Source of the DNA: Marsupella aquatica
Lineage: Eukaryota > Plantae > Marchantiophyta
Assembly (NCBI GenBank): GCA_973895155.1
Contig: OZ316894.1
Span: 23,372,709 to 23,436,708 of the forward strand
Length of the DNA: 64,000 bases
Direction of reading: 5' to 3'
The notes under the pieces are model-generated. The model was not told where the DNA came from. It searched no databases and was given only the letters and a program-made list of their open reading frames with translations. Made by a program: the position numbers and the translations under genes. Below, one piece after another: positions 8,345-62,378 of the stretch (positions are counted from its first letter, which is position 1; each line of letters begins with the position of its first letter).

Positions 8345-9170
8345 CTTAAACTAGTAGGTTGTGGTACAAGAAGTTATGAGATTTGAGACAGTCCCCTAAC
8401 TAATATATTTCCAAGTCAATCACAAATCGTGCACCGAGGGAGTCTTCTTGTGTAGACTGTACATCTCCATTTGCGGGATAATTCCTCGAAAACTTTGTGT
8501 GGCGTCGCATACCACGTAGAATCCCTGTGAGTCAGGATAGCGCATCGTGCAATCTTCCAGCCCTGGAAATGGCATAGACCTCGGCGAGTTGTCGTTGCCC
8601 AGAGTCAACATAATCCACGACGTCAGACGTGCCCGGCCCACGAGAGACAAAACCCAGACAAAGTTCATTGTTTCTAACGAATGGCTCAATGCCGTAATTT
8701 AGTATTCTCACTACTAGTGGACTTGTGGTTGAATGAGCATGTTTACGATTTCTGATAAAAACTTCTTCCCTCTCGTTATTAGCATTCAATGCAGCCGGGG
8801 ATGATTGAAGTCTTTGCCATCTTGAGTGTGGAAAATATGCCAGAGAGTTGTCTTACATTCTTGATGGGTTTCTTCACTGAAACTTTTTTTGGTTCTAAGA
8901 TCAATGAATTCTGTTTCACCATTCTCTTAAAGCGAACACAGCGATAGGATTGAAGCTTTCTTCACTGACCCTTGGAATAGGACGACTGCTGTACCTGTGG
9001 ACCTGCTCTATTTCTCACAAACCACACCATCCTGTCAATATGCGACGACTCATGTGCGCGATTGAGTATTTTTCTCGGGCGAAAAGCTTGCAGTTCATGC
9101 ACGTTCGAAAGTGAGGATTTCCCGTGGAGTAACGGAGCCTGCTCTTCAAGAGAAAGGCGCAGTCCGAACC
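8345..9170 (+). promoter_or_regulatory. Upstream promoter/5'UTR region of RLK copy 1, co-duplicated with 15785-16697
   Basis: Colinear blocks shared with the upstream region of copy 2 (gagatttgagac-gtcccct, caagtcaatcacaaatcgtgca, ggcatagacctcggcg-gtcgttgcccagagtcaac, ttagcattcaatg). Confidence 0.6.
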
Positions 9171-12114
9171 ATGATGGCGTGCAAAAGAACAAAGCGACCA
9201 CTCCTGCAGTTCCTCGCCTGTCTGGTGGCAATCTGCTGGGCTGCATCTCGTTCATCGGTCTACGCCAAACTTCTGCAATCTAAAGTGACCGTCACTAACG
9301 GAGGATGCGACAATTACAGTGTAGAGAGCAAATGCGTCCTGCCTGTTCTCTCGGATGATCATGTCGATATCAACTATAAGCTTGCATTTGTCAACCTAGA
9401 GGCGACTCTTGACCTCTATACGTTATCCGTGGCCTGGACTGCATATCCCAGCGGCCCACAATATCAGAGAATCGTTTGGAGCGCCAACAGAAACCAGCCT
9501 GTCAGGGTTGGGGCATCGTGTACCTTCTCCCCAAATGGCAGCTTTGTTCTCCATGATAACGATGGCTCCCAGGTGTGGTCTACCTACACAGACAACATGG
9601 GTGTGACTGGCCTCGACTTGAACTCAACCAGTGGGGAATTGAGACTCGTTGGCGCTGGAAATCAGACAGTATGGTCGAGTTTCTCTTACCCCACTGACAC
9701 TCTCGTGGCGGGACAGCAGCTGGTGTGGCTGGGGATGCCGCTAGTCAGTGGAAACTCGAGTATTAACAACTCCGAAGGAGCGTACTCACTTGTAATGCAG
9801 CCGGGAGGACTGGTCCTCTATGCAGGCCTGCCTGATCCTCAGCCTTACTATGTGTGGAATTACTTTGCACAGTCTCAGGAGCCCATGCCAGTTTCATCTC
9901 TTCTGAAGACTTGTCACAACCCTGTGACCCTCGGGCTCTCTTTGAATGGTGAGCTGCGTTTGTCAAATTTGAGCACTCCTAGTACAGGGAACAGCCAGAA
10001 CTACACATCCCAGGCTCTATGCAATCTCCCGTCAAATTACAGTACCATCAAGACGAGCTCGTATCCCAACCAGGCTAACACGACTTTCATGGTTCTAGAA
10101 AGCGATGGTAACCTCAGAGTTTACGTCTACGCTCTCGGAGGAGTGTTGGCGACAGATTATGATTTTTTCACAAACACCCAGTGTGATCTTCCGAGTGTTT
10201 GTGGTGGCTATGGTGTGTGCAAAGCAAATGGGCTGTGCGAGTGCCCGAAGGATCCGATCCCGTGGACGAACTCATCCGATCCCACCATGGGATGTTCCAC
10301 TTCTCAAGGCTCTTTGGGAACGTCATGTGCTGCCAATTCCCAGGTGCAATTCGGTCAGGTCACGGCCGTGGAATACTTTTCGAACAGATTCAGCGCCCCT
10401 ACTGACATCAACATATCAATTACTCACTGCGAAAATCTCTGCGCGAAGAACTGCTCTTGCACGGCTTCGTTCTACAATTCGCAGTCCGGGGCTTGCTACT
10501 CTGTGTTCGAACCACTCTCGTCGATGAGATCCAGTCCGAATTCCAATTTGAGCGCTTTAGTGAAAATCACTACTGTAACACCGAGTGCCGTCGCGCCACG
10601 GAGTGTTGCACGGAAGAAGAAAAAGAGCTCCAGCCATGTAGCTGTGTGGATTGGCGTTGGGGTCTCTTGCTTCGTCGTCGTCTCACTAGTTATGTTGGGA
10701 ATAGTGATTTACGCAAAGTCCAGGCACAAGGCGAGACTGGATCAGCAAGCGAAAGAAAATGGGTTTCTGCAAACCCTTCCAGGTTTACCTCCGAGATTTT
10801 CTAAAAAGGAGGTGGATGCAGCGACCATGGGGTTCACGAAAACACTTGGGTCTGGAGGCTTTGGCACGGTGTACGAGGGCACTCTGAAGGACGGATCCAA
10901 GGTTGCTGTCAAGAAGCTAGAAAACTCTAGGAGTACGAAGGATTTTCGTGCAGAGATGGCCACTCTCGGCAATATCCATCATATCAATCTCGTTCGTTTG
11001 AGAGGCTTCTGTGTGGAGGGTCCGCACAATATGCTCGTGTATGAATTCATGCCCAATGGATCTCTTGACAGGTGGCTTTTCAACCCTGATTCGGAAGCCG
11101 CCAGCTTAGTGTCCGTCGCACTGAACTGGGACACTCGCTTCAAAATTGGTCTCGGCACTGCCCGTGGCCTGGCTTATCTGCATCAAGATTGTTCAGGTTT
11201 CTGTACATCTTCTCTGTCTCTCATCTTAATTCTCAGTGCTTCAGGAGGAGCACAGGCCCGAATGTCTCTCAAAATCAAGCATGTGCTTCCGGATTTCATG
11301 ATTTCCTTGACAAATCCATTTTCCTGGGTTGTGAAGTTTGCGTATTCGTTTGAGATCAGTAGCATCGATATTTGCGAATGTGATTTCATTCAAACATTCG
11401 TAGAGTCTTTGTCACTCTTTCTAGAGTCACGTGTGCCTTTGCTAAAATTTGTTGAGCTTGAAATGTTTCTGTTGAACAGAGCGTATTATCCATCTCGACG
11501 TCAAACCGCAGAATATTTTACTCGACGAAGACTTCAATCCTAAAGTTGCAGACTTCGGTCTCTCGAAGCTGGTGGACAGAGATGACACCGGCGTGGTGAC
11601 AACGATTCGAGGAACTCCTGGGTATTTGGCTCCGGAGTGGCTTCTCCAAGCTGCAATTACAGACAGAACGGACGTATACAGCTACGGCATTGTCTTGCTA
11701 GAGCTGGTTGCAGGAAGAAAGTGTCTGGACCGTTTTACGCAGGATGCCAAGCGAAGATATCTTCCAAAATGGGTACTTCGGTGCGTGCTTCAGGAAGACG
11801 CATTGGAAGTAGTGGACCCGAGGCTTGAGATCATCAAGGACAACGAAGAGCAGGTTAGGAACGTGATCCACATTGCTTTAGAATGCGTTCAGGAAGACAT
11901 GAACCTCAGACCATCTATGGCAAATGTGGTGAAAATGCTGGAAGGCTTTGTGCCCGTCCCGGATCTCAACAGAGACGCACTCTCGTCCAGGTACCGGTTT
12001 CTCAATCTGGTGGACAGCTCTGGTGAACAATCATTGGGTTTAAGAAGTACTAGGATTAGCGGATTGAGTATCTCTTCCGACAGCAGCCGGACAAAATCTT
12101 CGTCGACAACGTAA
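9171..12114 (+). CDS. G-type lectin S-receptor-like Ser/Thr kinase (SD2-like, non-RD), copy 1; exons 9171-11196 and 11480-12114
   Basis: Signal peptide, bulb-lectin motifs (IVWSANRNQPV, WSSFSYPTDTLVAGQ), EGF-like CDLPSVCGGYGVC, PAN CENLCAKNCSC, TM helix, and kinase motifs GSGGFGTVY/VAVKKL. A GT-AG intron at 11197-11479 restores CSERIIHLDVKPQNILL..DFG, followed by GTPGYLAPEW. Confidence 0.95.
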
Positions 12115-16697: not shown

Positions 16698-19600
16698 ATG
16701 GCGTGCAAAAGCAAGAAGCAGCCACTCCTCCAGTTCCTCGCCTATCTAGTGGCAATCTGTTGGGCCTCTCCTTCATCAATATACGCCGTACGTATACTAT
16801 CTGCTTTGAGAGTCTCTAACCAAGGATGCCACAATTTTAGTGTAGACAGGACATGCGTCCAGACTGCTCTCTCGGATAATCATGTCGAGATCAACTATGC
16901 GCTCGCATTTGTGAACCTAGAGGCGACTCCTGACGCGTATACGTTATCCGTCGTCTGGACTGCATATCCCAGCGGCTCACAACAATATCAGAGAATCATT
17001 TGGAGCGCCAACAGAAACCAGCCCGTCAAGGTTGGGGCATCGTGGACCTTCTCCCCAAATGGCAGCTTGGCTCTCCATGATAGCGATGGCTCCAAGGTGT
17101 GGTCCACCTACACACACAACAGTGGTGTGACTGGCCTCGACATGAACTCAACCAGTGGGGAATTGACTCTCGTGGGAGCTCGAAATCGAACAGTATGGTC
17201 GAGTTTTTCTCAACCCACTGACACTCTCGTGGCGGGTCAGCAGCTCGTGTGGCCTGGGATGCAGCTAGTCAGCGGAAACTCGAGCACTAACAACTCCGAA
17301 GGGCCGTACTCACTGGTAATGGAGCCGGCAGGACTGGTCCTTTATGCAAGCCTGTCTGATCCTCAACCTTACTTTGTGTGGAATTACTTCGCACAGTCGC
17401 AGGAGCCCATGCCAGTGTCATCTCTTCTAAAGACTTGTCACAACCCTGTGACCCTCGGGCTCTCTTTCAATGGTGAGGTGGGGTTTTCAGATAGCTCTCG
17501 AAGCACTCCTAGCCCAGTGAACAGCCAGACTTACACATCCCAGGCTCTGTGCAATCTCCGGTCAAATTACAGTATTATCAAGACGAGCTCATATCCCAAC
17601 AAGGCAAACACGACTTTTATGGTTCTAGAAAGCGATGGAAACCTCAGAGTGTACTCCTACACCCTCAGAGGAATCTTGACGACAGATTATGATTTTTTCA
17701 ATAGCACTCAGTGTGATCTTCCACGGGCTTGTGGTACCTATGGTGTGTGCAAAGCAAATGGGCTGTGCGAGTGCCCAAAGGATTCGATCTTGTCGACGAA
17801 CGCATCCGATCCCACCGTGGGATGTTCCACTTCTCAAGGCTCTTTGGGAACGTCATGTGCTCCCAACTCCCAGGTGCGATTCGGTCAGGTCACGGCGGTA
17901 GATTACTTTTCAAACAGATTCAGTGCTCCTGTGGGCACCAACATATCGATGACCCAGTGCGAAAATGTCTGCGCGAAGAACTGCTCTTGCACGGCTTCGT
18001 TCTACAATTCACAGTCCGGTGCTTGCTACTCTGTGTTCGAACAACTCTCTTCGATTAGATCCAGTCGAAATTTCAATTTGACCGCTTCAGTGAAAATCAG
18101 CACTGTAGCAGCAAGTGTCGCTGCGCCACCGAGTATTGCACCGCAAAAGAAGAAGGTCTCCAGCAATGACACAGCTATATGGATTGGCGCTGGGGTCTCT
18201 TGGTTTGTCATCATCTCACTTGTTATATTCGGATTAGTAATTTACTTCAGGTCCGTGTACCGCAAGGCGCGACTGGATCGGCAATCGAAAGAGAATGTGT
18301 TTCTGCAAACCCTTGCAGGTTTACCTCCGAGATATACTAAAAAGGAGGTGGATGCAGCGACCATGGGGTTCACAAAAAAGCTTGGGTCTGGAGGCTTTGG
18401 CACGGTATACGAGGGCACGCTGAGGGATGGATCCAAGGTTGCTGTCAAGAAGCTTGAAAAGTCTAAGAGTACGAAGGATTTTCGTGCAGAGATGGCCACT
18501 CTCGGGAGCATCCATCATATCAATCTCGTCCGTTTGAGAGGCTTCTGCGTGGAGGGCCCACACAATATGCTCGTGTATGAATTCATGCCCAATGGGTCTC
18601 TTGACAGTTGGCTTTTCAACCATGATTCAGAAGCTGTCAGCCTAATGTCCGACTCATTGAACTGGGACACTCGCTTCAAAATTGCTCTTGGCACTGCTCG
18701 TGGCCTGGCTTATCTGCATCAAGATTGTTCAGGTTTTTGGACATCTCCTGTGTCTCTCGCCTTAATCTTGACTCTCGCCGTAATTCTCAGTGCCGATGGA
18801 GAACAGTCATGTTTGTCATGAGAGAATGAGGCTTTATGAGATCGATCGATGAGCGCTGCTTCAGTACTTGAGTCATCCATTTTCCTGGGTTCTGACATTT
18901 GCGTGTTCATTTGAGATGCCTAGAGGGATCCGTGGCGTCGATAATTTGCTGAAGTGCATGCTTTCTTTCCAACATTCCTAGAGTCTTTGTCACTCTTTCT
19001 AGAGTCACATGCGCCTTCGCTAAAATATGTTGAGCTTGAAATATATGTTTCTGTTGAACAGAGCGTATTATCCATCTCGACGTCAAACCGCAGAATATTT
19101 TACTCGACGAAAACTTCAATCCGAAAGTTGGAGACTTCGGTCTCTCGAAATTGGTGGACAGAGATGAGACCTCCGTGGTGACAACGATGCGAGGAACACC
19201 TGGGTATTTGGCACCGGAGTGGCTTCTCCAAGCTACAATTACAGAGAGAACAGACGTGTACAGCTACGGCATTGTCTTGCTCGAGCTTGTTGTAGGACGA
19301 CGGTGTCTGGACCTTTCTACGCAGGATGGCGAACGAAGATATGTTCCAGGGTGGGTACTTCGGTGCGTGCTTCAGGGAGACATATTGGAAGCAGTGGACC
19401 CGAGGCTTGGGACCATTGACAACGAAGAGCAGGTTATCAATGTGATACACATTGCTTTAGAATGCATTCAGGAAGAGATGCACCTCAGACCGTCCATGGC
19501 AAACATAGTGCAAATGCTGGAAGGCTTCGTGCCCGTCCCGGATTTCAATAGAGACACACTCACACTCTTGTCCAAGTACCGGTTTCTAAATCGTCAAGAT

Positions 19601-20005
19601 ATAGACATTTGGAGTGATCAATCACTGGGTTCTAGAAGTAGCTATGGTGATCAATCACTTTGGTCAAGAAGTAGCTATGGTGATCAATCACTTTGTTCTA
19701 GAAGAAGCTATGGTGATCAATCACTTTGTTCTAGAAGTAGCTATGGTGATCAATCACTGGGTTCCAGAAATACCTGTGAAGATCACTCACTGGGCTCCAG
19801 AAATACCTGTGAAGATCACTCACTGGGCTCTAGAAATATCAGTGGTGATCAATCGCTGAGTTCTAGAAATTACTTTGGTGATCAATCACTTAGTTCTAGA
19901 AGTATCAGTAGTACGAGCAAATTGAGTTTCTCTTCCAGCTGGCCTCCGGGCCCCAACTCATCACCTGCCAAATTTTCAGTTCTATGCCCCCCACCTCATT
20001 ATTAA
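16698..20005 (+). CDS. G-type lectin S-receptor-like Ser/Thr kinase (SD2-like, non-RD), copy 2; exons 16698-18732 and 19062-20005
   Basis: Close paralog of copy 1 with the same domains and the same intron position (GT-AG 18733-19061). HLDVKPQN catalytic loop; C-terminus extended by 11-aa repeats. Confidence 0.95.
19616..19912 (+). repeat. Coding minisatellite: 9 x 33 bp encoding DQSL(G/W/C/S)SR(S/N)xxx in the RLK copy 2 tail
   Basis: Unit gatcaatcactgggttctagaagtagctatggt, read in frame in ORF 19151..20005. Confidence 0.95.
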
Positions 20006-47911: not shown

Positions 47912-49240
47912 AATGAGGAATGAGAAATAATATTGTCTATCATTGTTGCTCGCCAGCAACTGCTCTTGCTGCAACTGCAATTGGTCACTCTGGTTGCCAC
48001 CAATTCTTTACCACATAGACTGGTGATGACAACGGTACACAATTTGCAAATTTACTTCGACTCTTTCAAACTATTCAACATGCATTTTACTGAGATTATC
48101 ATCATATCTCTGGGAATTACATTGATCCTAGGTCAAGAGAGTGGAGCAGCTGGTATTTGATGCATGTCATCGAGCATGATTCTGTTCGTTTCAAATATTT
48201 GTTTTGAGTGTCACCGACAACATTCATGTACATTTGTGACCTGGTTAGAGAAGACATGACAACGAATCCAGCAATTTGACGAACAGGATATTGTCCGTTG
48301 AGCGTCAGGTTGTCATAGCCCTACGACAGTTTTCCAGTGGGTGTTTGCTACTGACACTTTCAGAGATGTTTGGCGTTTCCGTCCCATGCATATCAGATGT
48401 TGTTTGGCGATTTGTTAGGGCTTTAATTGTGCGAGGCAGAGGGCAACATTTGAGTTGGCCACAAGGAGAGGCCATGGCAAGGGTAAAAGAAGAATTTCGC
48501 CAATTGCAAGGATTTCCAAATTGTTGTGGTGCCATTGATGCCACTCATTTTCAAGTGGAGTTACCTCCTGGAACAAATTCTGCTGATTATCGTGATTACA
48601 AACATGGTCAGAGCATTTCCATGCAAGCTGTCTGTGATAGTCATCTTCAATTTTTGGATGTTTTTTCAGGATGGCCTGGCAGCATTCAAGACTCTCGCCT
48701 TCTACGGGTGTCTGGTTTTTTTAGTGATGTTATGGAATATCACACAAAACTCTCCGGTCCAGTATTTACTTCTCCAACCGGATTCAGTACAAGGGAGTAC
48801 ATTATTGGAGATTCTGGTTACCCTGCTTATCCCTGGTTGCTTAACCCTTTTCCTGCTACAACAGAGCATAGTCGCAAAAGACACTTTAATTATATGTTGA
48901 GCTCAACTAGGATGTGTGTGGAACGAGCTTTTGGGAATTGAAGAATAGTTGGAGATTTATTTCACGCAAGATGTATAGGCCATCTCCTTATCGACTAGCG
49001 CACTATATTACTTGTGCATGTATTCTTCATAATATTCGTATTGACCGTGGAGATGTGTACGATCTAGCTTGGGGGATAGATCCAAACCCTCCTTATGAAC
49101 CCGAAGGGCCCCCTGCTGCACATCATAATTACGATAATGGGCGTAGATATCGCATTGCAATGATGGATCATTTGTTGCCAGAGATAGAGTGGGAGGAACA
49201 ACAAAGGCGTAATGCTGCCCCTAGGGATCATAGATTGTGA
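47912..49240 (+). pseudogene. PIF/Harbinger transposase (DDE_Tnp_4, HARBI1-like), disrupted
   Basis: LF*VSPTTF, LSVERQVVIAL, GFPNCCGAIDATH, QAVCD, GWPGSIQDSR, YIIGDSGYP, FNYMLSSTRMCVERAFG, CACILHN. Stop at 48205 and frameshifts near 48275 and 48935. Start approximate. Confidence 0.92.
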
Positions 49241-49385: not shown

Positions 49386-50498
49386 TTATTGTGAAGGCCG
49401 TGAAGAACTTGCAAGCTTCTCCGTTAGGACCTCAGTCAAACGTGTTATCTGCTCGGTTGTTGTCGTCATTGCTGTAGCCAAAGTCCTCTCTTGTCGCTCT
49501 TGGACCTGACACTCACGTTCTCGGATTTCACACTCACGTTCTCGGATGTGAGAATCATGTTCACAAATTTCACAATCGCGCTTGGCCGAGAAAGCCATGT
49601 CAACACAACTATTGGCCATGGTTTTGAATTGCGCTTGCCTATCTCATCCAAACTTGAATGCCTTTCGCTTCACACCTCTCTTGCTTGGGCCAGAAAAGTC
49701 CTGAGGGGATGATGGTTGTCTCACTCCATCAGTATTGTTGGTGTTCCCTTGTGCACTTTGTTGCATTGGCCTTGCACAATCAGCCTGACTAGCAGGTACA
49801 GACCTATCTTCATCAACGTCATCTTCATGATCACTTGCAAAACACAAAACTTGCTGCATTCAATAAAAGAAGACGGTAGTAAAGAAATTTAACTCATAAA
49901 CTAAAGATAGATACATTGTCTTGGGTAGCAAAGCACTTGTAGAGGTGAGAGTAAAAACTATCTTACTTTCTGACGACAAAATTAATGGATCCTCCTGGGG
50001 GTTTCGGTCCATCGAAGAAATGTCAGATAAGAATTGTTTAGGTGGAGTGATGCGCGGAATATCTGCATACCACTCCATCATTATCTCATACAAATCAATA
50101 GAGAAATTAGTGGGAAATCTCTTTTCGCGTCGCAACTTGTCATCCATGTTGAAGTAGGAAATCTGCCCAGTTTTCTGCAAATTCTCATAGTCATAAATCA
50201 TTTTGAACTTGCTGTCAATGAGCTGCCACTTCTTCTTACAACTGTTGTGATCTCGAATAGGATTAGTGAACCCCTCATCCTCCATAAATTTTGCCATTGC
50301 TTTCCATTTCAACTTAGTGCTGGTCATCTTCTGCTGAGTGGAGCCTCCCAGTACAACAGTATGGTACTCATTTTTTTTTGCTGCAATAAGAGCCTTCATC
50401 TTTGTGTGAGTCCAATCTGGCAACTTACTCTTTCCTTGAGGTTGTGATGCACCTTGCCATGAAGTTGTGCCTTGACCACTCTAGTTTTGGCTTGTCAT
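49386..50498 (-). pseudogene. Harbinger-associated Myb/SANT (trihelix-like) DNA-binding protein with C-terminal coiled coil, disrupted
   Basis: DWTHTKMKALIAAK...KWKAMAKFM...RDHNSCKKKW...SYFNM...FPTNFSIDLYEIM. ATG at 50498 follows an acceptor and has an in-frame TAG at 50481-50483. Intron donor at ~49966; IRERECE repeats at the C-terminus. Confidence 0.85.
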
Positions 50499-50600
50499 CT
50501 GAAAGCCAAAAAACAATATGCAAATTACTTTGTCAAAAAGTTACAAAACTAATGGACAAAAAAGGGTATAACCACCGTGCTAGCAAATAGTAAATAGATA

Positions 50601-50775
50601 TTCTCATACGAGCCAATTTTGCCTCGTACAAGCAAAATTTTGTCTCGTACAAGTAAACAAGTTCCTCGTATGAGCATATCTATTTACTCGTACGAGTTTC
50701 TGTTTTCTTGTATGAGTTTCTATTTTCTTGTATGAGTTTCTATTTTCTTGTATGAGTATTTTTTTTCTTGTATGC
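50601..50775. repeat. Array of CTCGTACGAG-like palindromes decaying into (ttcttgtatgagtttctatt)n
   Basis: ctcatacgag, ctcgtacaag x2, ctcgtatgag and ctcgtacgag, then cttgtatgag repeats at ~20-bp spacing. Confidence 0.8.
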
Positions 50776-50940
50776 ATTTTAGTTTCTTCTCTTCACGGTA
50801 TGTAGCGTCCATATATGCAATAATTGTGCGGACAATATTATGGTGGGTCCCACCATTGTACAACATCAGAGGAAATTTCTTGACGATTTCACACAAGGAC
50901 TCCAATATATTGCCACAAAATATGAAGTCGAAACAAAGTC

Positions 50941-50973
50941 ATACAATACTAGCGCCTGGCGCTAGTATTGTAT
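50941..50973. repeat. Perfect 33-bp palindrome ATACAATACTAGCGCC-T-GGCGCTAGTATTGTAT
   Basis: The 16-bp arms are exact reverse complements. This is the first copy of the dispersed palindrome family. Confidence 0.95.
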
Positions 50974-51064
50974 TATACAAAAAAACAACACTTTAAGAAC
51001 TCACACTTCTGCCCGTTAGAAAAGACAAACTACAATTGTAGCTGTTCAACGATAAAGCAACAGT

Positions 51065-54000
51065 CTACATTCTCGTTCCCAACTGCCTATCAAGTATGTA
51101 ACGGACTTCTCCCAACGTTAGAATTGGCTGGCTACATAATGTCGAATTGAGCACATCCAGTTCGAACACATTCTTGAACACCCAATACACATGTTTGCAA
51201 GGCATGTAAGGCTTCCGATAAGTATGCCGACGGTAGAAATCCTCGCAAGAGCAACATGGGAAACAACATATCTGAACCCAATAAGAGGTGACTGATCTCT
51301 CATGTTCATGGGTCCGGATACAAAACTGTTTCCCCGACGCATTTCCACTCGTGATCTCTCTCTCTCCAATGACGCTCATCACTTCTTTTTCAGAGGCTTC
51401 AATTCTCTTCAAATGTGTTTGGGTAAGATGCACTCTTTGCAAGCATTTCTTCCCGTTCCTTGAAGCGCACCTCACAGATGGGTCAGTAAGGTTGATCCTC
51501 TCCGGGAAAAGATTGACATCAATCCGTAATGCAGAAGGCAACGGTGCTTCGATTTCATCTCCACGGCCTTCGGAGAGAATAAGTCCTTGTTCTTTCAAAA
51601 ATTGAATCTCTGCTCCAGAAAGATTGGTCCCTCTGGCAATTGGGAGATGTGAAGGAACATTGGGAATGTTCGAGACTCCTCTCCTTGTTGTGCTTCGGTG
51701 ACAGTGGTTGTTGGGGAAAAACCATATCTGATCGTTATAAGGTTGCCCCCTGAACATTCTGCATCCTCTCACGGAAATTGCAACAACACCATCTGGATTC
51801 GGAAGGCCAACCTTCTTTACTCGATTTCAACATTCATCACGACTACCTCCCCATCCAAGGGTTCCGTTACACACTGGACCCGCACCCCGTTTTGAGGTCC
51901 AACGCAACTGCCAGGCACCGGGAGGTACTTCACTTTCCATTGGGGAAATTGAATGACAATATGCAGTCTCGACAGGTCTTGCAGGCGTCACTGGTGGGAC
52001 AGAGGATCTTGTTGCTCAATGCGTAGGTGTGTCAATGACCACAACTTCCTCAGAAGCATCGCTTTCTGACAAATTATGGACCGCATCAATTCCACCGGCT
52101 GAAGGCGTAGAAGGCATTTTCTCAAAATCAGTGGAATGCAGGTTTCTCCTTTTCAAACCTTTTGTATTTGGTGAAGTAACAAGGATGGTATCATGCCTGT
52201 GCGAGTCTTCTGCTGAGACGTTCCCAGTTGCATGTCCTTTTCGTTTCACCGATCAAGTTACAACATCACCATTCAATGGAACGCTTCTTTCCAAATCAAA
52301 CTCAGCAGCGTTTGACAGGAGGAGATTGGTGGCTTCCTCAAAGAGATGCGATGACCCCGCTAGGTCCACCGATCTGAAGGCAAGCTCAAAAATAGTTGGG
52401 CCAGTTCCTCTGCTCAATCCCCTTTTGTATGCAGTATAAGCAGCAATTTGAGCAACCACTCTATTTTGGTCCGTTTTGCATCCTTCAAACAGACCAACCA
52501 TTTTTTCTGTTGCCATGCTTTCATTCCAGTATGCCTAGATTCCGAACCAGTACAATTAGGAATCATCCCAGCCTCTTCGGCACTCTTGCTCTGAAACATT
52601 GCACGCAAGGGTTTAGTACATGTAAGAAATTGCACACAAAAGTGGCAACACAATGGAAATAACAATAGTGCCAGACGCTAATAAACTGATGATGATATTT
52701 CCATGTAAAGAACCGTTTAACATAGAATAAAGGTAGTCCTTACATCACTCATAGTCCAAACGGATTATTAGCGCTCGGCGCTACTATTGCGGATAAGGAA
52801 CTCTTCTATCTCACACATGCTTCACTAGTGCGAGCGCTATTAATGGGAACATGCATCCTAGAGCAGTGTATAACTCACCAGTCTTATGAAGTTCCCCCAT
52901 TGTCTCCATCGGACAACCCACCAAGAGAGCCACCCTTGCAGCATCCGAAGTTTGCCTGAGTGACAATTGCCAGACCTCCACCAGTCATCGATTTCCCTCG
53001 AGATTCGATATGCTTTCAAGAAAGTTGGCGCATTCCGAAGATGATCCCACATCTCCTTGTGCTCTCCGTGCTTTCCATCTTTTACACCTTCTCGGGAATG
53101 ACAATGAAAAGATTGGAAAAAATGAAAGGCATCTGATCTTTCTCGCTCTGGGTCGGGTACACCGTCAAAGAACATGTTTCAAACAACATTCCAACCAGCC
53201 TGAGCATTGTCCACCATGAATCCCCGAATTGCAACATCCTGTAAACCATTTTCATAGGCAACCTCTAACATCAAACGCCAGGCTCTCTCCAGAGATTTTG
53301 CATCTTCGGCCTTTAGCTCACAAGTGAATATGGTGCAAAGTGCCCGGTAATGATGATCATATACATGGGCACTGAAAGTAAGCCAATCTGCCGTGCTTCG
53401 ATGCATCACGTGAAAACTTACCCATGAACCCTCTAACGACCCACCAGGTTTCATTCTTTGGAGCAAGTCCAGACCACTCCCGTCACCTTTTACGGTCATT
53501 TTAAAGATATGAGCACTCTCGTCCCGACAGCCTTGACCAGGGAGCAAGAACCTATGAAGAAAAGGCAGTCGGATACACTTTTGCATCCTCACAAGAAATT
53601 CCAATTCCCCTTTCCCCTTCTGATCTTGACGGACACTCCTTAACACGGATGCAAACTTCTGAGGAGATGCGACAACCATCAGGGACTCCCAGATTTCCTT
53701 CTCTTCTTCAAGAGAGATTTCTTCAACATAGGTCTCGCAAAATGTATTCGTCAGTGTCTCAGTCGTAGAGTTTTTAATCCCTGCTGGGGATGCCATGGGG
53801 TTTGCAGTGAATCCCTTCTCCAGATGAGACCTTGCAACCTTTTATGCCTCCCTCGGAAAGACCCATCGACTAGGATGATTGTGAAATCCCATATGAACAG
53901 CTAGTCGCGACATGTGGGCCAAAGACTTAACATCAACTTTTGCAGATGGATACATGTAGAACATTAGAGCAGGGCAGGCCTCAACGCACATCGGAGGTTC

Positions 54001-54879
54001 GGAGCAATGGTGAAAAACAACTCCACCTTCGGAGATCAATTCCCCAACTCGGAATGGGCCCGAAAGTTTTGGGGTTCTTGCCCACATCTCATTATTTCGA
54101 AACTTGTTGTCTTTCCACCACGGACAAGCATTATTTCGACACTGCAGCGATCCCGTACACTGGACTTTCCCGAAATCCCACATTTTCTTTGGAAGAACAT
54201 TTGAAGACGTTTTCACAATCCGAGTCCAATAATAACAATCCTTACCACGATCCATATCTTTCAAACGTTCACCTTTTGCGTTCACACAGTCTACCGGGGG
54301 TAACTCAAAAACCACATTCCCATTGTAAGATGTGGGAAGAGTAGGCACTACGTGATGAACAAAATCACTCCCCCTTATAAACCAAGACAATTCACTATGA
54401 CCTTTGGATTTCAAGATTGTATCCATTGCACTCTGCCGGTACACAGTCAAAGGCACAATCATTTCTTGATCCGCATTAGACTCCTTTTTAACCTCAGATG
54501 GGTAAACTGGAATCTTCTCTCCGAGAGTAGTTGTCGCTTGCTTATCATCTCCAGAACTTTCCGAGAGTTCGATGACATCGAGTTCAGCCGTTGTGGGAGG
54601 ACGAGTATAGGAGGCCCCAGAATCTCTCAAAACAAAAACCTCATATTCTTTCTGAGCCTCCAGAGTCCAATATCTTTGACCATGAACAACATCGTAGAAA
54701 ACTGGACTCTCCCCCAAACAAACCGACACTAATGAGATCGCTAAAATAGACTCCTTGGCGACATCAAATCTCACTCCCAGATATTCCTCTAAAACACGCT
54801 TTGATTCAGATGATTCGAGGACGAGAATTGTGATTACATCCCGAGTGTCCTTCCTCGTGACAACGATATTTTGAGCCAT
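51065..54879 (-). pseudogene. Mutator(MULE)-like transposase with N-terminal WRKY/GCM-like Cys-His region and C-terminal SWIM zinc finger; one intron 52591-52878
   Basis: ORFs 53842-54879, 53179-53796 and 52858-53175 are one frame broken by single stops. Motifs: CTGSLQC..C...CPA...VHMGFHNHP; GFMVDNAQAGWNVV*NMF...AFHF (MULE-like D..A..A..VF..FH); SWIM CSCEDF...PCKHVYWVF. Frameshift in the A-run near 52505 and further lesions downstream. Confidence 0.75.
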
Positions 54880-55054
54880 GGCTTCAAAAGAGGGATATGC
54901 ATTTGCCCCACGCGAAATGAAATATGTTTATCATGAGATTCGAGTACAAGAAGTAAACGTTCCATTCTCATTATAGAGTCGTTATAGATTTGGACGCACT
55001 CCATCAATGACGTTTTGTCATCTTACCAACGGCAGGATTCGGGTTCATAGTTAC

Positions 55055-55200
55055 TAGCGCCTGGTGCTACCTCTAAGTGTAAAACACTCTTGGGTGAGGA
55101 CTACGAATGCCAATAATAATAGTGCCTGGCGCTACCTCTAGGTGCAAACATTCTTGGGTGAGGAGTACGAAGGCAATAAATAATAGCGCCTGGCGCTACC
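55055..55200. repeat. ~65-bp tandem repeat with three TAGCGCCTGGCGCTA-type palindromes in the divergent promoter region
   Basis: Palindromes at 55055, 55120 and 55184, separated by near-identical spacers (cctcta-gtg-aaac-tcttgggtgagga-tacgaa-gc-aataa). Confidence 0.9.
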
Positions 55201-55659
55201 TATTTCAATGGACTTGAAAACATTCAATGGAAGGATAAGTACGATAACGCGATACAGTACGAGTCATTAAGTTGGCACGCTTGAAGATCTCCACTGGATC
55301 TTCGCGAATCCGATCCGCTCGGGTCCAAATGTGTCAGAGAGGAAGCGTCCATGAAAGTTATATCAGAGGGTCCTCTTCGAAGTGGGTACCCAAGACCAAG
55401 TGCGAACTCTCCTTATATCTAGTCGTTCTCCTCTGATGTCCTCATTGTCAAGCCATTATTCACTGAGTCGCAGTTGTGGCTCATCTTTCGGGCGCCTGGT
55501 TCCCGTTCTCGCTTTCGAGCCCAGTTGTTCTTTTTTGCTTTCGTGCGCGTTCTTGTTCTCCTTCTCGTCCTTGTTTCTCATTCTCGTCCTAGTTCACGCT
55601 GTTGCCCTCCTTCACGTTCTTGTTCGTGCTTCTTGTTCTCGTCCTCATCCTCACTTTCA

Positions 55660-56425
55660 ATGGCACCTCCACGAGGGAAGGCAAAGGAGGAGGCACTTGT
55701 CCCGAGCGACATCAACCAGGAGACCCCCGCATCAAATAGCTTACCGCCTCGGCCGAATGCCGAGAGGATGACGGTTCCAATCTCGAAGAAGGGGAAACTC
55801 ATCTCAAAGATGAAGAATGCCCCAACTGTGGGCCGCAGCGAAGGATCCAGTCAGCCAAATGCGAGCGGCCCGACTTCTGTTCCCGCTAGGAATATCGCCC
55901 CTGCTTTGTTGAACTAAAACGTCATTCGCAACGACCATACAACCATGACTCATTCCATGCACACGTAGTCGACACAATCTCTACGTGGTTCACCTCTTCT
56001 CCAAGGTTATGTTCACACGAATACTCAAGCTTTACTTCAAGAGTAGACGAACACACATGCTCTCTCTCTTCCTCAAGTTGCTCCGTTACAATGAGTAAGC
56101 ACCACACACTAGCGGCTTACACTAGTCTTGGTATATACAAGGTCATACACGACTAACCTAACCTCAGCTAAGACACTAACTGTGGTTAGCCTAAGTGCCG
56201 TAACCTTTGAGTCACAAGACTAAGAGCAATCCTTAACATGCTTCAGTCGGCCGTCCAAGAGCCGACACCATCTGCACGGGAGTCTCCGTATCTTCTTCAT
56301 CCACTGAGAGTGATCGTTCTTCGAGCGGGGACTCATCACCGAGCAGGCGAGGATTTGCGTGGTATGGATCGAGCGACTCGAATGACGACTTCGATGCGTA
56401 CAAGCCAAGTTGGTGGGAAGACTGA
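55660..56425 (+). pseudogene. Small low-complexity (Ser/Pro/Lys-rich) ORF of unknown function, split by a solo LTR
   Basis: MAPPRGKAKEE... follows a CT-rich leader. Removing 55907-56238 and one TSD copy rejoins the frame (..NIAPA|SVGRPRADT..AYKPSWWED*). Confidence 0.5.
55907..56238. mobile_element. Solo LTR (332 bp) with 5-bp TSD TGCTT
   Basis: TGTT...AACA termini; tgctt at 55902-55906 and 56239-56243. Related to the copies at 7051 and 7494. Confidence 0.9.
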
Positions 56426-57574
56426 TTTCCCATTGTCAGAGCGTATCGTTTGAGTGCTGGAGAGACTTGGAGGATCCATCGAGGTTGATAGGATCTATTT
56501 CCACTCGTTTTTTTCTGATAGAAAACCCATACCGTTCCTTCCTCGTATGCCGGATTTCTAGTGTACTGTAATATTTTGTATATGAACGGCACAGCCGTTC
56601 GTTTTTACCTTGGTGTCAATGCTTTTGAATTCAAAAGACCAAGCTTTAATTTTGGGTTCTACTCCCGTGTTTGCATTGTATTTCTGAATGTGAACCTGAT
56701 CTATTTCTTTGAAATGGCCGTAAAAACTCGTTTGCTGTCAATGTTTTTACTAGCGTTCGGCGCTATTATGAGAAACAAAGTGTCCGTAACACTATCGTGA
56801 CATGTCTTATCTCTAAAGTGTTTTTGATAGCGTTGGGCGCTATTAATGAAAGGAATCACAAGTCAAACCCGTTCGGAGTTATTTTTACTTTTATTTCAAC
56901 AAATTCTGTTCAATTGATGTGCATTTTAATAGCGCCAGGCGCTATTGTAATTCATTGGAATATTCGTTGAATGAATGGGTTCATGTGGTCATGTTTGTTG
57001 TCATTGGACTCCGATTTCATCATTTATTTGAATACTAGCGCCGAGCGCTACTAAAGTTGGCTTGTCGACACCTGTACAAAATTGGAAAATTTATAGACAA
57101 TTGTGTTGATAGTACTGCCCGTAGCTACATTAAGATGGTTTTTCAGATACATTTGAAAGTATGTTGTATAATAGCGCCTGGCGCTATCCACAACTACCGA
57201 CACTGATGTGGTTCCAACGGTCACTTTCCAACGGTAATATTATAGTAGATTGAGGTTCACAGAACCCTTTTTGCTTTTGTCTGGGATGAAAGTCCAATCG
57301 GAGAATGCCATCTGTACTTGGGACCGTTGTAATCGAATGGCTGGTTCTATTGTATCGGTGTCTTAATACGAGGTGGAGATCGCTCGTTTGGGATAATTTA
57401 GTCCGTCTACGCGCTCAGACCTCGGACTGTACGAGTTTGTCAAGTGCGTATGTGCGTCCTTTATTGGTCCCATACATTTTGAGACGTGATCGTCACAAGA
57501 ACTGCACGGCGCGTATGACAATGCCGGGTGGTCGAGTTGCTCTCCACGGCAACTTTTGGCTGGGTGATACAAGA

Positions 57575-60500
57575 ATGGGGGAGGCTGATGGTGGTCATTC
57601 TGATTCCTCTCAGTCTTTGTTCGCTGGTTTAGTATACACCCGTCGCGTCACTCCATCAATTGCGTCCCTATCAACTTCCGAAGCTGAATCTACACAGCCC
57701 TTCCCGAGGTCGAGGAGAGGGAGAATGGACCCTAAGGACGTCTCCATGGGTGAAGTCAGTGACATAGGCTTATCGATGGATGAGGTAATATCAAAGCACG
57801 CATTGTCGTTTGGGAAGGATTTTTGAGGATTCAATAAGGAGCCACCTCGAATTCCTCTTTGTAGATTGCTCCCCATGGAGGTTGTTCGAACCTTACAAAA
57901 AGAAAGTGCATCGATCAAGAAGTTGAAAGAATCATTCTGTGTCACCGGGTACAACTCGCGCATTGGGATGCCTTTCTACGTTCAGCCTGCGAATGCCGAT
58001 GGGGTTTCTCAGATATGCGCCAGCGAGATCCGGGACTCTTGGGATCCAATCTGGGTCGCAGAGAACGACAAGTTTGAGGAAGAGTGTGATGCGGACCCAG
58101 CGTTCCATATTCTAAAAGATAAAATGTTTTGTGTGTTTGACGGAAATCATCGATTGTACTCGTGGTCAATCGTCACGAGGGAGAATCCGGACAACTTGAA
58201 GTATCATCCTCGTGTGATTTGCGTCATTTTCAATGGTGACAGAGGTTTGCTAGTTGAGTTCGAGGCGGCAATGCACACCGTGAACCAGTAAGTTCTATTC
58301 GTTAACTATTGTTACCCCTGTCATTCATTTTGGACCAAACATGCTTTGCGAAAGTGTTCATTCCCCAATTTTTGCTAGCGCCCGGCGCTACTAATTCCTT
58401 TTCATTGCATCTAGGCTTGGACAAGCAGTCGTCGAGCCTTCCTGGATTCTTGACGTGGACAGAATTTCCCAAATTCTGTCGCGTGATCTTGATCACTATA
58501 AGCCACTCATCGATAGCGCGAACATGGCAAAGTTTGAGGTGATCCAAAAGAAGACGAGAAAGGGGTCTTGGTTTACACATAAAATGCCACAGGATGCTCT
58601 CATCTACATTCTGTGTGTGGACAAAATCAAGTCTTACTCAAATCAATTTAAGTCTGATATGGCTTTAGCCAAAGCTCAAGGGGCTTCTTGGTCAGAAGAG
58701 GAGACCACAAAGAGGCATGAGGCAATGATGAAGGAGGCGACCAAAGATTGGTCGATCAAAGTGACGAAGATCACCCCTTTACTTCATCCGGATTTTGGAG
58801 ATTATTTGGGAACCTGTGCTGAGATGTATCCCGTAACTGAGAAGAACAAACGGGAGAAGAAGCCAAACACAGTTGTATGCACAATGGATCGAGCCAGGTT
58901 GTTTACTGCTGTTTCATACCTGGATCCAAAATTGAGGTGCACCCTTCTAGTAGCCCACTGCACTCCCGAGATTCGGAAACAGTTTTTCCATCCTGCAAGT
59001 GTCAACGACAAGCCTGTGAAGCAGTGGTGCCATACATGGCATACTTGGAATTATGTGGAGGGAATTGCAACTGGAATGCTTCACACTTCCTTCAAACAGA
59101 TTTCTGACCGGATGCCGGCTGACCGTCTCACAAAGTCTGGGTGTGAGTCAATGGAGGCCATGCTTAAGATCATTCTCGATGAATTCAGAAACTTTGGGGA
59201 TCTTGTCAAGGCAAAATTCTTCAACAACTTGTGGCCTTCCAAATATGCGGACAAGGAAGATTACACAGAGCGGAACCGGAAGAGAGCCAAACGATATCTA
59301 TACCAGTTTTACATGTGGATGGACCTTAGATCTCCTGACACTCTGTGGGCATACCCGGCTGCATTTCAGAAATGGGTGTCTATCGAAGAGGGAGACGCTC
59401 TTGCCGACCTTTATTCGATGTACCCAACGGAGGGAAAGTTTCCACCATGTTCATTGTCGGAGTGGGAGAGACTTCACTGTCCGTGGTACCTTGACACAGA
59501 CAAATGGGATTTACCGTTCGACGAAGCTGAGAAGGATGCCTTCATGAAGTTGCAGAAGTCCCAGATCCCTGCCAACTATGTGTCTGCAATGAAGCAAGGT
59601 CTCCAGTCTGATGTTGACGAATCTGCATCTGAGTTACAGAAGAATTGTGAGTCTCTTGTCATGCACGTTGACCGAAGCCGTAAGCCAAGAGCAAAGGCGA
59701 AGAATGAGTCAGCTGCACCAAGTGACTCCACAAGGTCCTTCAAGAAAAGTGAGTAGTCTAAGCGCTTTTTGGTTACTTGTTGGCGCTACTTATGCAGGAG
59801 TTTCATTAGGAAATTCCTTTGATTAATAGCGCCTGGCGCTAGTCTGAAAGGTTGGACTCATTCAAGTTTCTGTGCCTAACAGGAGGTCGGAAGTCCGACA
59901 CAAAGGTCCCGGCTGCCGAAGGGAAGAATGATGCAACTCCTCAGGCATCAGAGGCAAACACTGGAGCTCAAGAAACCCCAGATCAAGGGACCCCGGATGG
60001 TGCTGGTAAATCCATTGTCCCTCTTGACGCAACTAGCACGAAGAAAAAGAAAAAGAGAGGCGCCGGTGAGGACAGAGCAGCATCATCTACTCGAGACGTT
60101 ATTTCCTGTGGACTCCAGAGAGATGTCGGGAATTTTAAGCGAAGGTGTTCTAGACACTGTTTTGTGGAGTCCAATTTAAACGAATTTTATGATTCGGTAT
60201 TTAACAAGGGGATGAAGCCCATGTGGGTTACTAAAGTTGAGGCCTGGGGAAAGGAATTGGTAAAGTCAGGAGACAGAGAGAAGGGAGTAATACGTGGCGG
60301 AAAAGAGAGGGGCTTTGGTGTGGATGCTGGTTTCATCTACATTCCCACTGGATTAAAACCAACACTTCTTGATCGGAAGGTTCCCAAGTGGAACCTTCAG
60401 GATTACACTATTCCCAGCTCTTTCTTCCGAGCCATGGAGCCGTTCCTTGCAGACGATGGCCTACTTGCAATTTTACACAGAGGAGACTATGATCAGGTAT

Positions 60501-61336
60501 CTGAAGTGATTGCGGCTTGCCAGGATTCTAAGTGTTTCCAGTGTATTTCAGCCCACCATGTGGTCATGACTACACCAATGTATAGGCCCCGATCTGATAC
60601 TCAGGTAACAATTCCTCTTGCACATACGAGCGCCCGGCGCTACTATCAGCATTCGCAATATCTACAATTCACTTATCTTTTGTAAGGATGAATGGTTGAC
60701 TAGCGCAAAGCGCTAATATATGTGTTTGTTTTCTTATATTGCCTTCATTGGGAAACTGTGTTGCAGATATTCACACTTACTCTTAATATATTTTGCCGCA
60801 TTTCGACAAAGGGAAGGGTCCCGAAAGACCCCAAGTTCCGGCCACTATCGAATGAAGAAGACCCTTCCGTCACTAACATTATTGGGTTTTCGTTGCCGCG
60901 ACATGACCCGACTCCTGAGCTCCAATTTGCAGGAAATTCATGATTGCCTGTGGGTTTCATGCAAACTATTTTGGAATTGGTGACTCTTCCTGGAGATATC
61001 GTTATGGACTGGACAGTAGGTTCCGGTAGTACGTTTGTGGCTGGAGATTATTCTGGTCGCTTTGTTGTTGGGCTGGAAAATCGGCCAGAGTTTGTTGATA
61101 CTTCCGGTAAGGTCTTCCTCGATCTTTTACAGAACAAAGAAGTGGTTGCACCAACTCCTCCTAAGAAGATTCTTGGAAGTAAGAAGCTGGACAGGCTCCG
61201 TGCTATTCTAAATTTTGATTCGGAAGACGAGGATGAGGGTGGCAATGCTTCTCAGCAATCTAAAGATGATGAGGTGTCGAAGAATGTGGTGGACCTTGGA
61301 TCTGGAGATGAGGACAGTGAAGAGTCAGAAGAGTAA
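57575..61336 (+). pseudogene. ParB/Srx-like domain + beta-class N6A/N4C DNA methyltransferase-like fusion; exons 57575-58287, 58415-59748, 59883-60604, 60767-61336 (~1110 codons, two in-frame stops)
   Basis: Three GT-AG introns keep the frame. ParB-like VFDGNHRL at ~58133-58156. MTase-like VDAGFIYIPTG...FLADDGLLAIL, then FMQTILELVTLPGDIVMDWTVGSGSTFVAG...GRFVVGLE (SAM-binding motif I after the motif-IV position, i.e. beta order). Stops at 57824 and 60941. An in-frame upstream ATG exists at 57305. Confidence 0.8.
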
Positions 61337-62378
61337 TTTTCTTTAGCTTTCTTTCTCTCATTGTATACTTTTTTCCAAAGAACTCCTCTACTCCCTTTTG
61401 TCTAGAAAATTCGCCCGATTTCCCGACTTTGACTAAATAACTCCAGTTCAAATTCTCAGGTCAGAGTGGAATCTTCAGAGGCGTTTTCAACTTTGAAGGA
61501 ACGTCTCTAGGAACATTGTACAGACCCCGGAGAAGCCATTTGTTCTCCCCTCTTATGCTGAAAAGGCGGCACGACGGGCAGATTCAGTCAGGACGCTTAC
61601 TTGGGAGAGTAAGGGTCTTAGACTCAGGAGAGGCTCAGATAGAAAGTTTGTGCAGAATCACTTCGTAGATGATATTGCAAAATCAAAGTATGTGGACGAC
61701 GAAGCAGAGTCCACTGATAGATCAGAAAGTAGCGGTTCTGAATCGGGCTCAGAGTCGAGTGGTGGTTGTGGATCTGGTCTTTAGTTTTCCTTGTTTTATT
61801 TACCCGTTTATGGAGAACGACGACACTCAATAAGACGCCGTGACATGTCGGATTAGAGTAGCGCCCGACGCTATTACTGTAGCCGGTAGTTCAAAGAGGT
61901 TTTTATTTGGTTGTTTTCCTTATAGCGCCCGGCGCTAGTATAAATGTACTCAATGGCCACTTCACGTCCAATATATGTGACAATATTTTCATACCCTTCG
62001 GTGTCTTTTTTTGGGTGCACATTTGCTGGTATGAGTTTTGCTGTTTGCTGTTTACTGTTTGCTGTTTGCTGTCACGGAGAGATCCCCCGACAAAAAAAAA
62101 ACAAATTGAGTCTCTGAAACATATGTAGAAGCAAACATACAAATTCCCAAACCACAAGAGTGCTTGAAAAAAAATCATTGCAAATTAAAACCATGGACTT
62201 TACTACTCATTCAAATTTTGCCAAAAGTTGTCGAAGCAAAGTTATCCCCGAAGTTACAATTATCAAAATAATCCAAAATGGTACATAGAAAGAACATTGT
62301 AAATACTAGGTCTTATGAGTATAACCCTCTATGTATCTAACTTTGAGGTTTCTTTTTAGCAAGGTAGTGCTTCTCCAA

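Follow-up and report, generated by a model that had tools for sequence, protein, structure and literature searches.

Organization of the locus

The window analysed here is a 64,000-nucleotide stretch of the Marsupella aquatica contig OZ316894.1 (positions 23,372,709 to 23,436,708; coordinates below are window positions). It contains a Mutator-like DNA transposon that carries, besides a broken transposase-like gene, a four-exon cargo gene in which a probable ParB-like domain and a beta-class methylase-like fold are joined by a long helical region. Short palindromes are scattered through the non-coding parts of the element. The principal features are as follows.

50564..62088, no strand assigned: 11,525-bp Mutator-like DNA transposon; its terminal inverted repeats start with GGG and are weak and imperfect
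50555..50563, plus strand: left copy of the 9-bp target-site duplication GACAAAAAA
62089..62097, plus strand: right copy of the 9-bp target-site duplication GACAAAAAA
51065..54927, minus strand: broken transposase-like gene with several stops and one intron at ~52538-52878
57575..58287, plus strand: exon 1 of the cargo gene; low-complexity N-terminus, TGA at 57824, probable ParB-like domain with DGNHR at 58139
58415..59748, plus strand: exon 2; all-helical middle of ~444 residues, conserved, with no family match
59883..60604, plus strand: exon 3; linker rich in lysine, together with the first half of the beta-class methylase-like fold, with YIPTG (motif IV position) at 60338
60767..61336, plus strand: exon 4; second half of the methylase-like fold, TGA at 60941, S-adenosylmethionine (SAM) motif DWTVGSGST plus GLE, acidic tail
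50950..61937, no strand assigned: 15-bp palindrome TAGCGCCNGGCGCTA, 17 copies, all non-coding, starting at 50950, 52666, 52769, 55055, 55120, 55184, 56751, 56828, 56930, 57036, 57172, 58376, 59827, 60628, 60701, 61859 and 61923

The limits of the element were defined by the 9-bp duplication and by steps in sequencing depth, which bears out the claim of a preliminary description, made from the sequence alone, that the gene is borne by a transposon. Depth was taken from four public runs (X1 to X4) available as contigs, and gives no copy number. In X1 the summed contig depth is 346-867 within the element against 52-97 in the flanks, and similar or larger steps were found in X2 to X4, the excess amounting to ~5- to 10-fold or more in the four runs. 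One X3 contig connects 50504 to 62121. The element is plainly multi-copy. The A-rich 9-mer GACAAAAAA occurs four times on both strands of the window, and both flanking copies lie at the depth steps. The terminal inverted repeats score 41, against a shuffle mean of 24 (sd 4.3) and a best value of 42 among 300 shuffles. These boundaries and the palindromes, both absent from the preliminary description, hold most of the mechanistic information.

The transposase-like gene shows what we take to be a GCM-like Cys/His N-terminal motif, a DDE-like core and a SWIM-like end, while Pfam and PDB searches with it matched nothing. The Mutator label was assigned because of the 9-bp duplication together with these presumed motif patterns. 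Target-site duplications of 8-11 bp are described for Mutator-like elements (PMC6446971). A gene model from Riccia (P0055) fuses a stretch like the window transposase (33%, E 4e-15) to exon 2 of the cargo gene, so that the pairing of transposase and cargo probably recurs in that liverwort.

The cargo gene and its relatives

Between the four exons lie GT..AG introns of 127, 134 and 162 nt; with these removed, the exons join in frame into 1112 codons followed by a stop. All the motifs previously named were recovered in the spliced product: DGNHR at codon 189 (58139), YIPTG at codon 835 (60338), PGDIVMDWTVGSGST at codon 998 (60989) and GRFVVGLE at codon 1020 (61055). The frame is interrupted by two TGA stops, at codon 84 (57824) and codon 982 (60941), and since the latter lies upstream of the SAM-binding motif, the full protein cannot be made from the window copy. 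When the window gene was compared with the majority of the other copies, 40 of the 42 differences comprised 19 non-synonymous, 9 synonymous and 12 intronic changes, and 12 were of the CpG-loss type; neither TGA is among these 40, both stops lying no more than 25 bases from the ends of the compared stretch. One main X1 contig stops at 60940 and has a single letter unaligned, which hints weakly at another base at the second TGA. The window copy is decaying and dead.

The description of the locus as one intron-containing gene was upheld by a Riccia sorocarpa protein, KAL3677308.1 (P0113, 1207 residues, annotated), which was found as a cluster member. This protein is collinear with all four exons over 1136 columns (26% identity, E 5e-82), and since it aligns to them in order, the exons constitute one gene. 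The splice junctions are likewise supported by protein alignment, and the exon edges of the window gene correspond to the start and stop points of the homologous open reading frames (ORFs) P0001 (47% identity) and P0003 (59%). With exon 2 as the query, 108 relatives were retrieved at E 0.001 or better. Thirty proteins (29 exon-2 relatives and P0003) were looked up by cluster; the 14 labelled with an organism are all from liverworts, 11 from Riccia sorocarpa and 3 from Calypogeia fissa. Among the 116 proteins with a match, 20 bridge at least two exons in order, 3 of these at least three and 1 all four; most of the remainder are ORFs of one exon or incomplete models. In Riccia at least 11 models were counted, divergent and often partial. 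A word-index search with exon 3 returned no relative among longer proteins and one among proteins of near length, and no locus was found in the viral-contig scan with exon 3 or in the metagenome-contig scans with the exon-2 alignment or P0118.

A methylase fold with a degenerate motif IV

Exon 4 matched the Pfam family N6_N4_Mtase (E 5.4e-8; 33.5 bits, where 26.7 is the cut-off), and its PDB sequence matches up to E 1 were DNA amino-methyltransferases in 8 of 8 cases (best E 0.002). With the same exon, tblastn returned 927 phage records at E 0.1. When a profile built from 10 natural family sequences was compared with 140 beta-class enzymes of phages, 190 columns aligned with a probability of 91% and E 9.5e-7 (E 0.21 in the reversed control), and DLPTG fell on the DLPYG/DPPYG of the phage enzymes. 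The exon-3 half alone is weak (profile E 0.003-0.08), and the ESM Atlas comparison of exon 3 gave 0.80-0.84 with methyltransferase families throughout. Judged by these alignments, the C-terminal domain is a beta-class (PF01555) amino-methyltransferase fold with the motif order IV ... X-I-II, in agreement with the preliminary assignment to this class and to domains of prokaryote or phage type. Family profiles gave no relevant match against PDB sequences, and P0114 alone retrieved one methylase at E 2.2. Phage beta-class methylases with a DLPY or DIPY motif IV were observed at L004:764-1528, L005:737-1501 and L009:734-1543. The DLPY-type phage subfamily was considered as a specific donor and found no support above other beta-class enzymes.

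The glycine-rich SAM motif I and the acidic motif II are kept, as DWTVGSGST..GLE in the window and DFAGGWGAT..VAE in Riccia. The catalytic motif IV, (D/N/S)-P-P-(Y/F/W), is present in none of the 10 family sequences that reach this region, which read YIPT, YLPT, DLPT (three), DMPT, DMPS (two), DMPI and SVGT. Its aromatic residue stacks on the flipped base, and this position is T, S or I in all ten. Considering that the aromatic residue is missing from every one of them, the degenerate motif is a family trait and not decay of the window copy, which extends to the relatives the divergence previously noted in the window gene. The motif IV Asp is retained in 7 of the 10, a Trp is present downstream in all of them, and Tyr takes the place of the Asp in the subfamily of the window gene too (59% identity). 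Phage enzymes themselves often lack the first proline of the motif (D[LI]P[YF] in 41 of 72 sequences of an extended set); Y or F was found at the aromatic position in 140 of 140 phage sequences, a set picked by that motif and hence no independent count. From the sequence comparison, a pseudoenzyme is the likelier reading of this domain.

The probable ParB-like domain and the helical middle

The motif DGNHR of exon 1 (box II GxxR, with the conserved Arg) occurs in the window and in 11 of the 13 homologues having that motif, and falls on the GHxR of phage ParB proteins in the profile alignment. The ESM Atlas comparison of exon 1 gave 0.92-0.96 to clusters including ParB_N (11% of members), DUF3723 and DUF6551, and a PHROG ParB-like match had E 0.063. 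The exon-1 domain is probably, not provably, ParB-like: the signature motif named earlier was recovered, and support from the family and profile searches considered below is weak or absent.

The middle region had no match in Pfam. An alignment-based fold of P0113 residues 156-1175 was computed from 63 rows, in which window exon 3 and P0003 are misplaced. Its all-helical middle (residues ~335-715, equivalent to window exon 2) has a predicted local distance difference test score (pLDDT) mostly above 90, against values mostly under 60 for the methylase part and of 34-80 for the ParB part; a single-sequence fold of exon 3 gave 34.5. Foldseek with the whole P0113 model, the middle domain not being searched alone, found nothing in the PDB at E 0.001, and against the viral library it gave one meaningless tape-measure match. 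The best VIA-align result (Z 6.4) is confined to helical hairpins. This confidently modelled helical core of 370 residues may represent an undescribed fold.

Palindromes in the non-coding parts of the element

Allowing up to one mismatch to TAGCGCNNNGCGCTA, 16 matches were found where 0.02 are expected, and with up to three mismatches the window holds 18, 17 of them within the element. All 17 lie outside coding DNA, though coding sequence fills ~60% of the element. Palindromes are present in all three introns of the cargo gene and in the intron of the transposase gene; the cargo gene has four in its own introns and five just upstream, and the transposase gene two in its intron and three just upstream. 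A perfect palindrome is present at position 60628 in most of the other copies. In P0002 (34% identical), the residues LAPGA directly beyond the end of exon 2 are the translation of the same palindrome.

Proposed function and alternative explanations

Onto the observed single gene, its place in the element, the palindromes, the fold read from sequence, motif IV and the stops, we build a proposal on binding, nucleotide use and function. The cargo gene, as we tentatively read it, is an accessory gene of a multi-copy Mutator-like transposon whose intact protein may bind the 15-bp palindromes of its own element, a form of self-recognition, with a methylase fold predicted to be non-catalytic. The ParB-like domain would bind a nucleotide triphosphate and load onto the palindromes in dimeric form, in the manner of ParB on parS, and the helical middle would read the DNA sequence. 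The methylase fold could retain SAM or DNA binding without methyl transfer. The complex might then mark the element or protect it (from host silencing, say, in the way VANC acts for VANDAL), or it might aid the joining of the element's ends. A bolder version, which we regard as doubtful, is a ParB/parS-like clamp in the plant nucleus: a nucleotide-switched protein would load at the palindromes of introns and gaps and spread over the 11-kb element, where the dead methylase fold would flip or cover cytosines and so keep silencing off the element's own copies.

Several results weigh against self-recognition by a non-catalytic protein. The hhalign comparison of exon 1 with phage ParB domains gave E 0.021, with a reversed control at E 0.069, and Pfam and PDB profile searches gave no ParB match. 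The motif IV Asp is still present in the Riccia proteins, whose DLPT is one residue off the enzyme-type motif; the SAM-binding half was seen in the window and three near-identical Riccia proteins only. Beyond the family of the window element, conservation of the palindrome is a single five-residue read-through, that of P0002, and the palindromes could be transposase sites. If they are, the cargo protein would be employed otherwise, in chromatin or RNA binding or as a decoy for host methylation readers. This explanation, which we consider rather unlikely, is in line with the palindromes upstream of and within the transposase gene and with a preprint in which a Mutator transposase is reported to activate copies of itself in a sequence-specific way (10.64898/2026.08.24.746577). 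It accounts poorly for the four sites within the introns of the cargo gene and the five just upstream of it, a 15-mer with dyad symmetry fits a ParB-type dimer, and the ParB cargo genes of red algae adjoin inverted repeats on another transposon superfamily.

The protein could also be a catalytically active DNA amino-methyltransferase whose active site has been rebuilt, and write N4-methylcytosine or N6-methyladenine on its own element, as proposed in print for the Ectocarpus protein (PMC12477816). The collinearity with phage enzymes over 190 columns, the retained SAM-binding residues, the Asp in 7 of 10 motif IV sequences and the invariant downstream Trp all agree with this. The aromatic position argues the other way, being T, S or I in the whole family against Y/F in the phage set (selected on the motif), as does Tyr for Asp in the window's subfamily, and we judge an active enzyme unlikely. 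A captured or domesticated host gene, that is, a plant enzyme resembling DN4MT1, would explain the spliceosomal introns, and bacterial-type N4-cytosine methylases do exist in liverworts; we hold it to be very improbable, given that DN4MT1 has TSPPY where the window gene has YIPT, that the window gene is broken and lies within a multi-copy element, and that the Riccia models are so many and so often partial. Least credible of all is that the exons are separate genes or nested repeats. Coverage of all four exons by a single one of the 116 homologues, most of them single-exon ORFs or partial models, would agree with it, against which stand the in-frame GT-AG splicing and the 20 homologues that bridge at least two exons in order, three of them at least three.

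Comparison with known systems

Among the nearest described counterparts of the proposed self-recognizing protein is the accessory protein of Sola1-1_Ec32 in Ectocarpus, with a ParB-like domain and an N4-cytosine/N6-adenine methylase, for which binding and modification of its own element were proposed (PMC12477816). Compared by description, both proteins are of about 1100 residues with ParB-like and methylase domains, transcribed opposite to the transposase on a large DNA transposon; the window gene differs in its land-plant host, Mutator-like carrier, degenerate motif IV and dispersed palindromes. The surprise that the preliminary description implied for a ParB-methylase fusion thus finds no support: ParB-plus-methylase transposon genes are already published for algae. 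In Bostrychia, Plavaka elements carry a ParB-domain accessory gene (PAG2, PAG3) beside inverted repeats, for which binding to the own element was likewise proposed, and a PF01555 methylase gene on the same element, with homologues on Chondrus Mutator elements (bioRxiv 10.1101/2025.02.11.637652). There, ParB is fused to a 2-oxoglutarate (2OG) oxygenase and the methylase to SET, whereas the window protein fuses the ParB-like domain to the methylase; the Bostrychia repeats form tandem arrays, whereas the window palindromes are dispersed in introns and gaps.

The binding motifs of VANC21 lie in non-coding DNA of its own element, the Arabidopsis VANDAL21: in introns, between genes and at the termini (PMC5735166). 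VANC21 resembles the present case as a Mutator-like accessory gene with a short motif concentrated in non-coding parts, which here hold all 17 sites of the element. The VANC motifs are asymmetric 9-mers in tandem repeats, unlike the dispersed 15-bp palindrome. Anti-silencing was demonstrated for VANC, and the accessible text describes no ParB or methylase domain in it; an anti-silencing role of the window protein would be an analogy. Phage fusions of ParB_N and N6_N4_Mtase (PF02195 and PF01555), considered together with stand-alone beta-class methylases, share the order of ParB followed by a beta-class methylase, with motif IV before motif I. The fusions measure 404-510 residues and have DPPY or SPPY, whereas the plant protein is set apart by introns, by ~550 additional residues separating its two domains and by the lack of an enzyme-type motif IV.

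The link to DN4MT1 drawn previously was not sustained. MpDN4MT1a/b of Marchantia, which by description share a prokaryote-type amino-methyltransferase fold in a liverwort, are active, sperm-expressed host genes with an intact TSPPY (bioRxiv 10.1101/2021.02.12.428880), and ParB is not mentioned in the accessible text; the window gene has YIPT and a probable ParB-like domain. Eukaryotic N6-adenine methylases have been traced to phage ParB-terminase loci, and inactive methylase domains occur in DIRS1 elements (PMC4738411); the accessible part of that paper holds no land-plant ParB fusion. In a survey of the ParB fold, ParB-N6N4 fusions are mainly from phages, and the words 'plant' and 'transpos' do not occur in its accessible text (10.1101/2025.10.10.680097). 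No report of land-plant ParB-methylase transposon genes or of a degenerate motif IV was found within a coverage that leaves out most subscription papers; supplements of the papers cited above may list plant members.

How a transposon protein recognizes and protects a 10-kb element sequence-specifically is an open question, even for VANC. With a candidate protein, a candidate site and an intact annotated relative, KAL3677308.1, in hand, the idea that a ParB-type clamp works on eukaryotic chromatin can be put to a direct test, and the degenerate motif IV calls into question the published suggestion that transposon proteins of this kind methylate the element that encodes them. Although the window copy is dead, its value is that of a complete element linking gene, degenerate active site and candidate binding site.

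Other features of the element and its surroundings

The following features were also recorded.

55907..56238, no strand assigned: solo-LTR-like (long terminal repeat) later insertion, TG..CA, with 5-bp duplication TGCTT and very high depth in the four runs
61497..61784, plus strand: small ORF downstream of the methylase-like gene, with weak similarity to the C-terminus of the Riccia model P0026
47900-50500 and 62100-63070: Harbinger-type element, with DDE_Tnp_4 at 48249-48941 and a Myb/SANT gene at 49860-50480 (minus strand)

The solo-LTR-like insertion splits a small low-complexity ORF of the element at ~55660-56425, possibly its third gene. The ORF at 61497-61784 aligns to P0026 with 33% identity over 51 residues (pairwise E 0.001) and is perhaps a further conserved cargo ORF or an alternative exon. 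Near the left end, on its inner side (50580-50780), the element has subterminal tandem repeats of 20 bp and an inverted repeat of 24 bp, and a related word lies close to its right end; these are candidate transposase sites separate from the 15-bp palindrome.

The Mutator-like element is nested inside the Harbinger-type element, apparently within an intron of the Myb gene. Further upstream, the genes at 9066-12114 and 16698-20005 presumably encode S-domain (lectin) receptor kinases, for which reason we regard the window as land-plant DNA. The two are host genes forming a tandem pair, the second of which ends in a short tandem peptide repeat.

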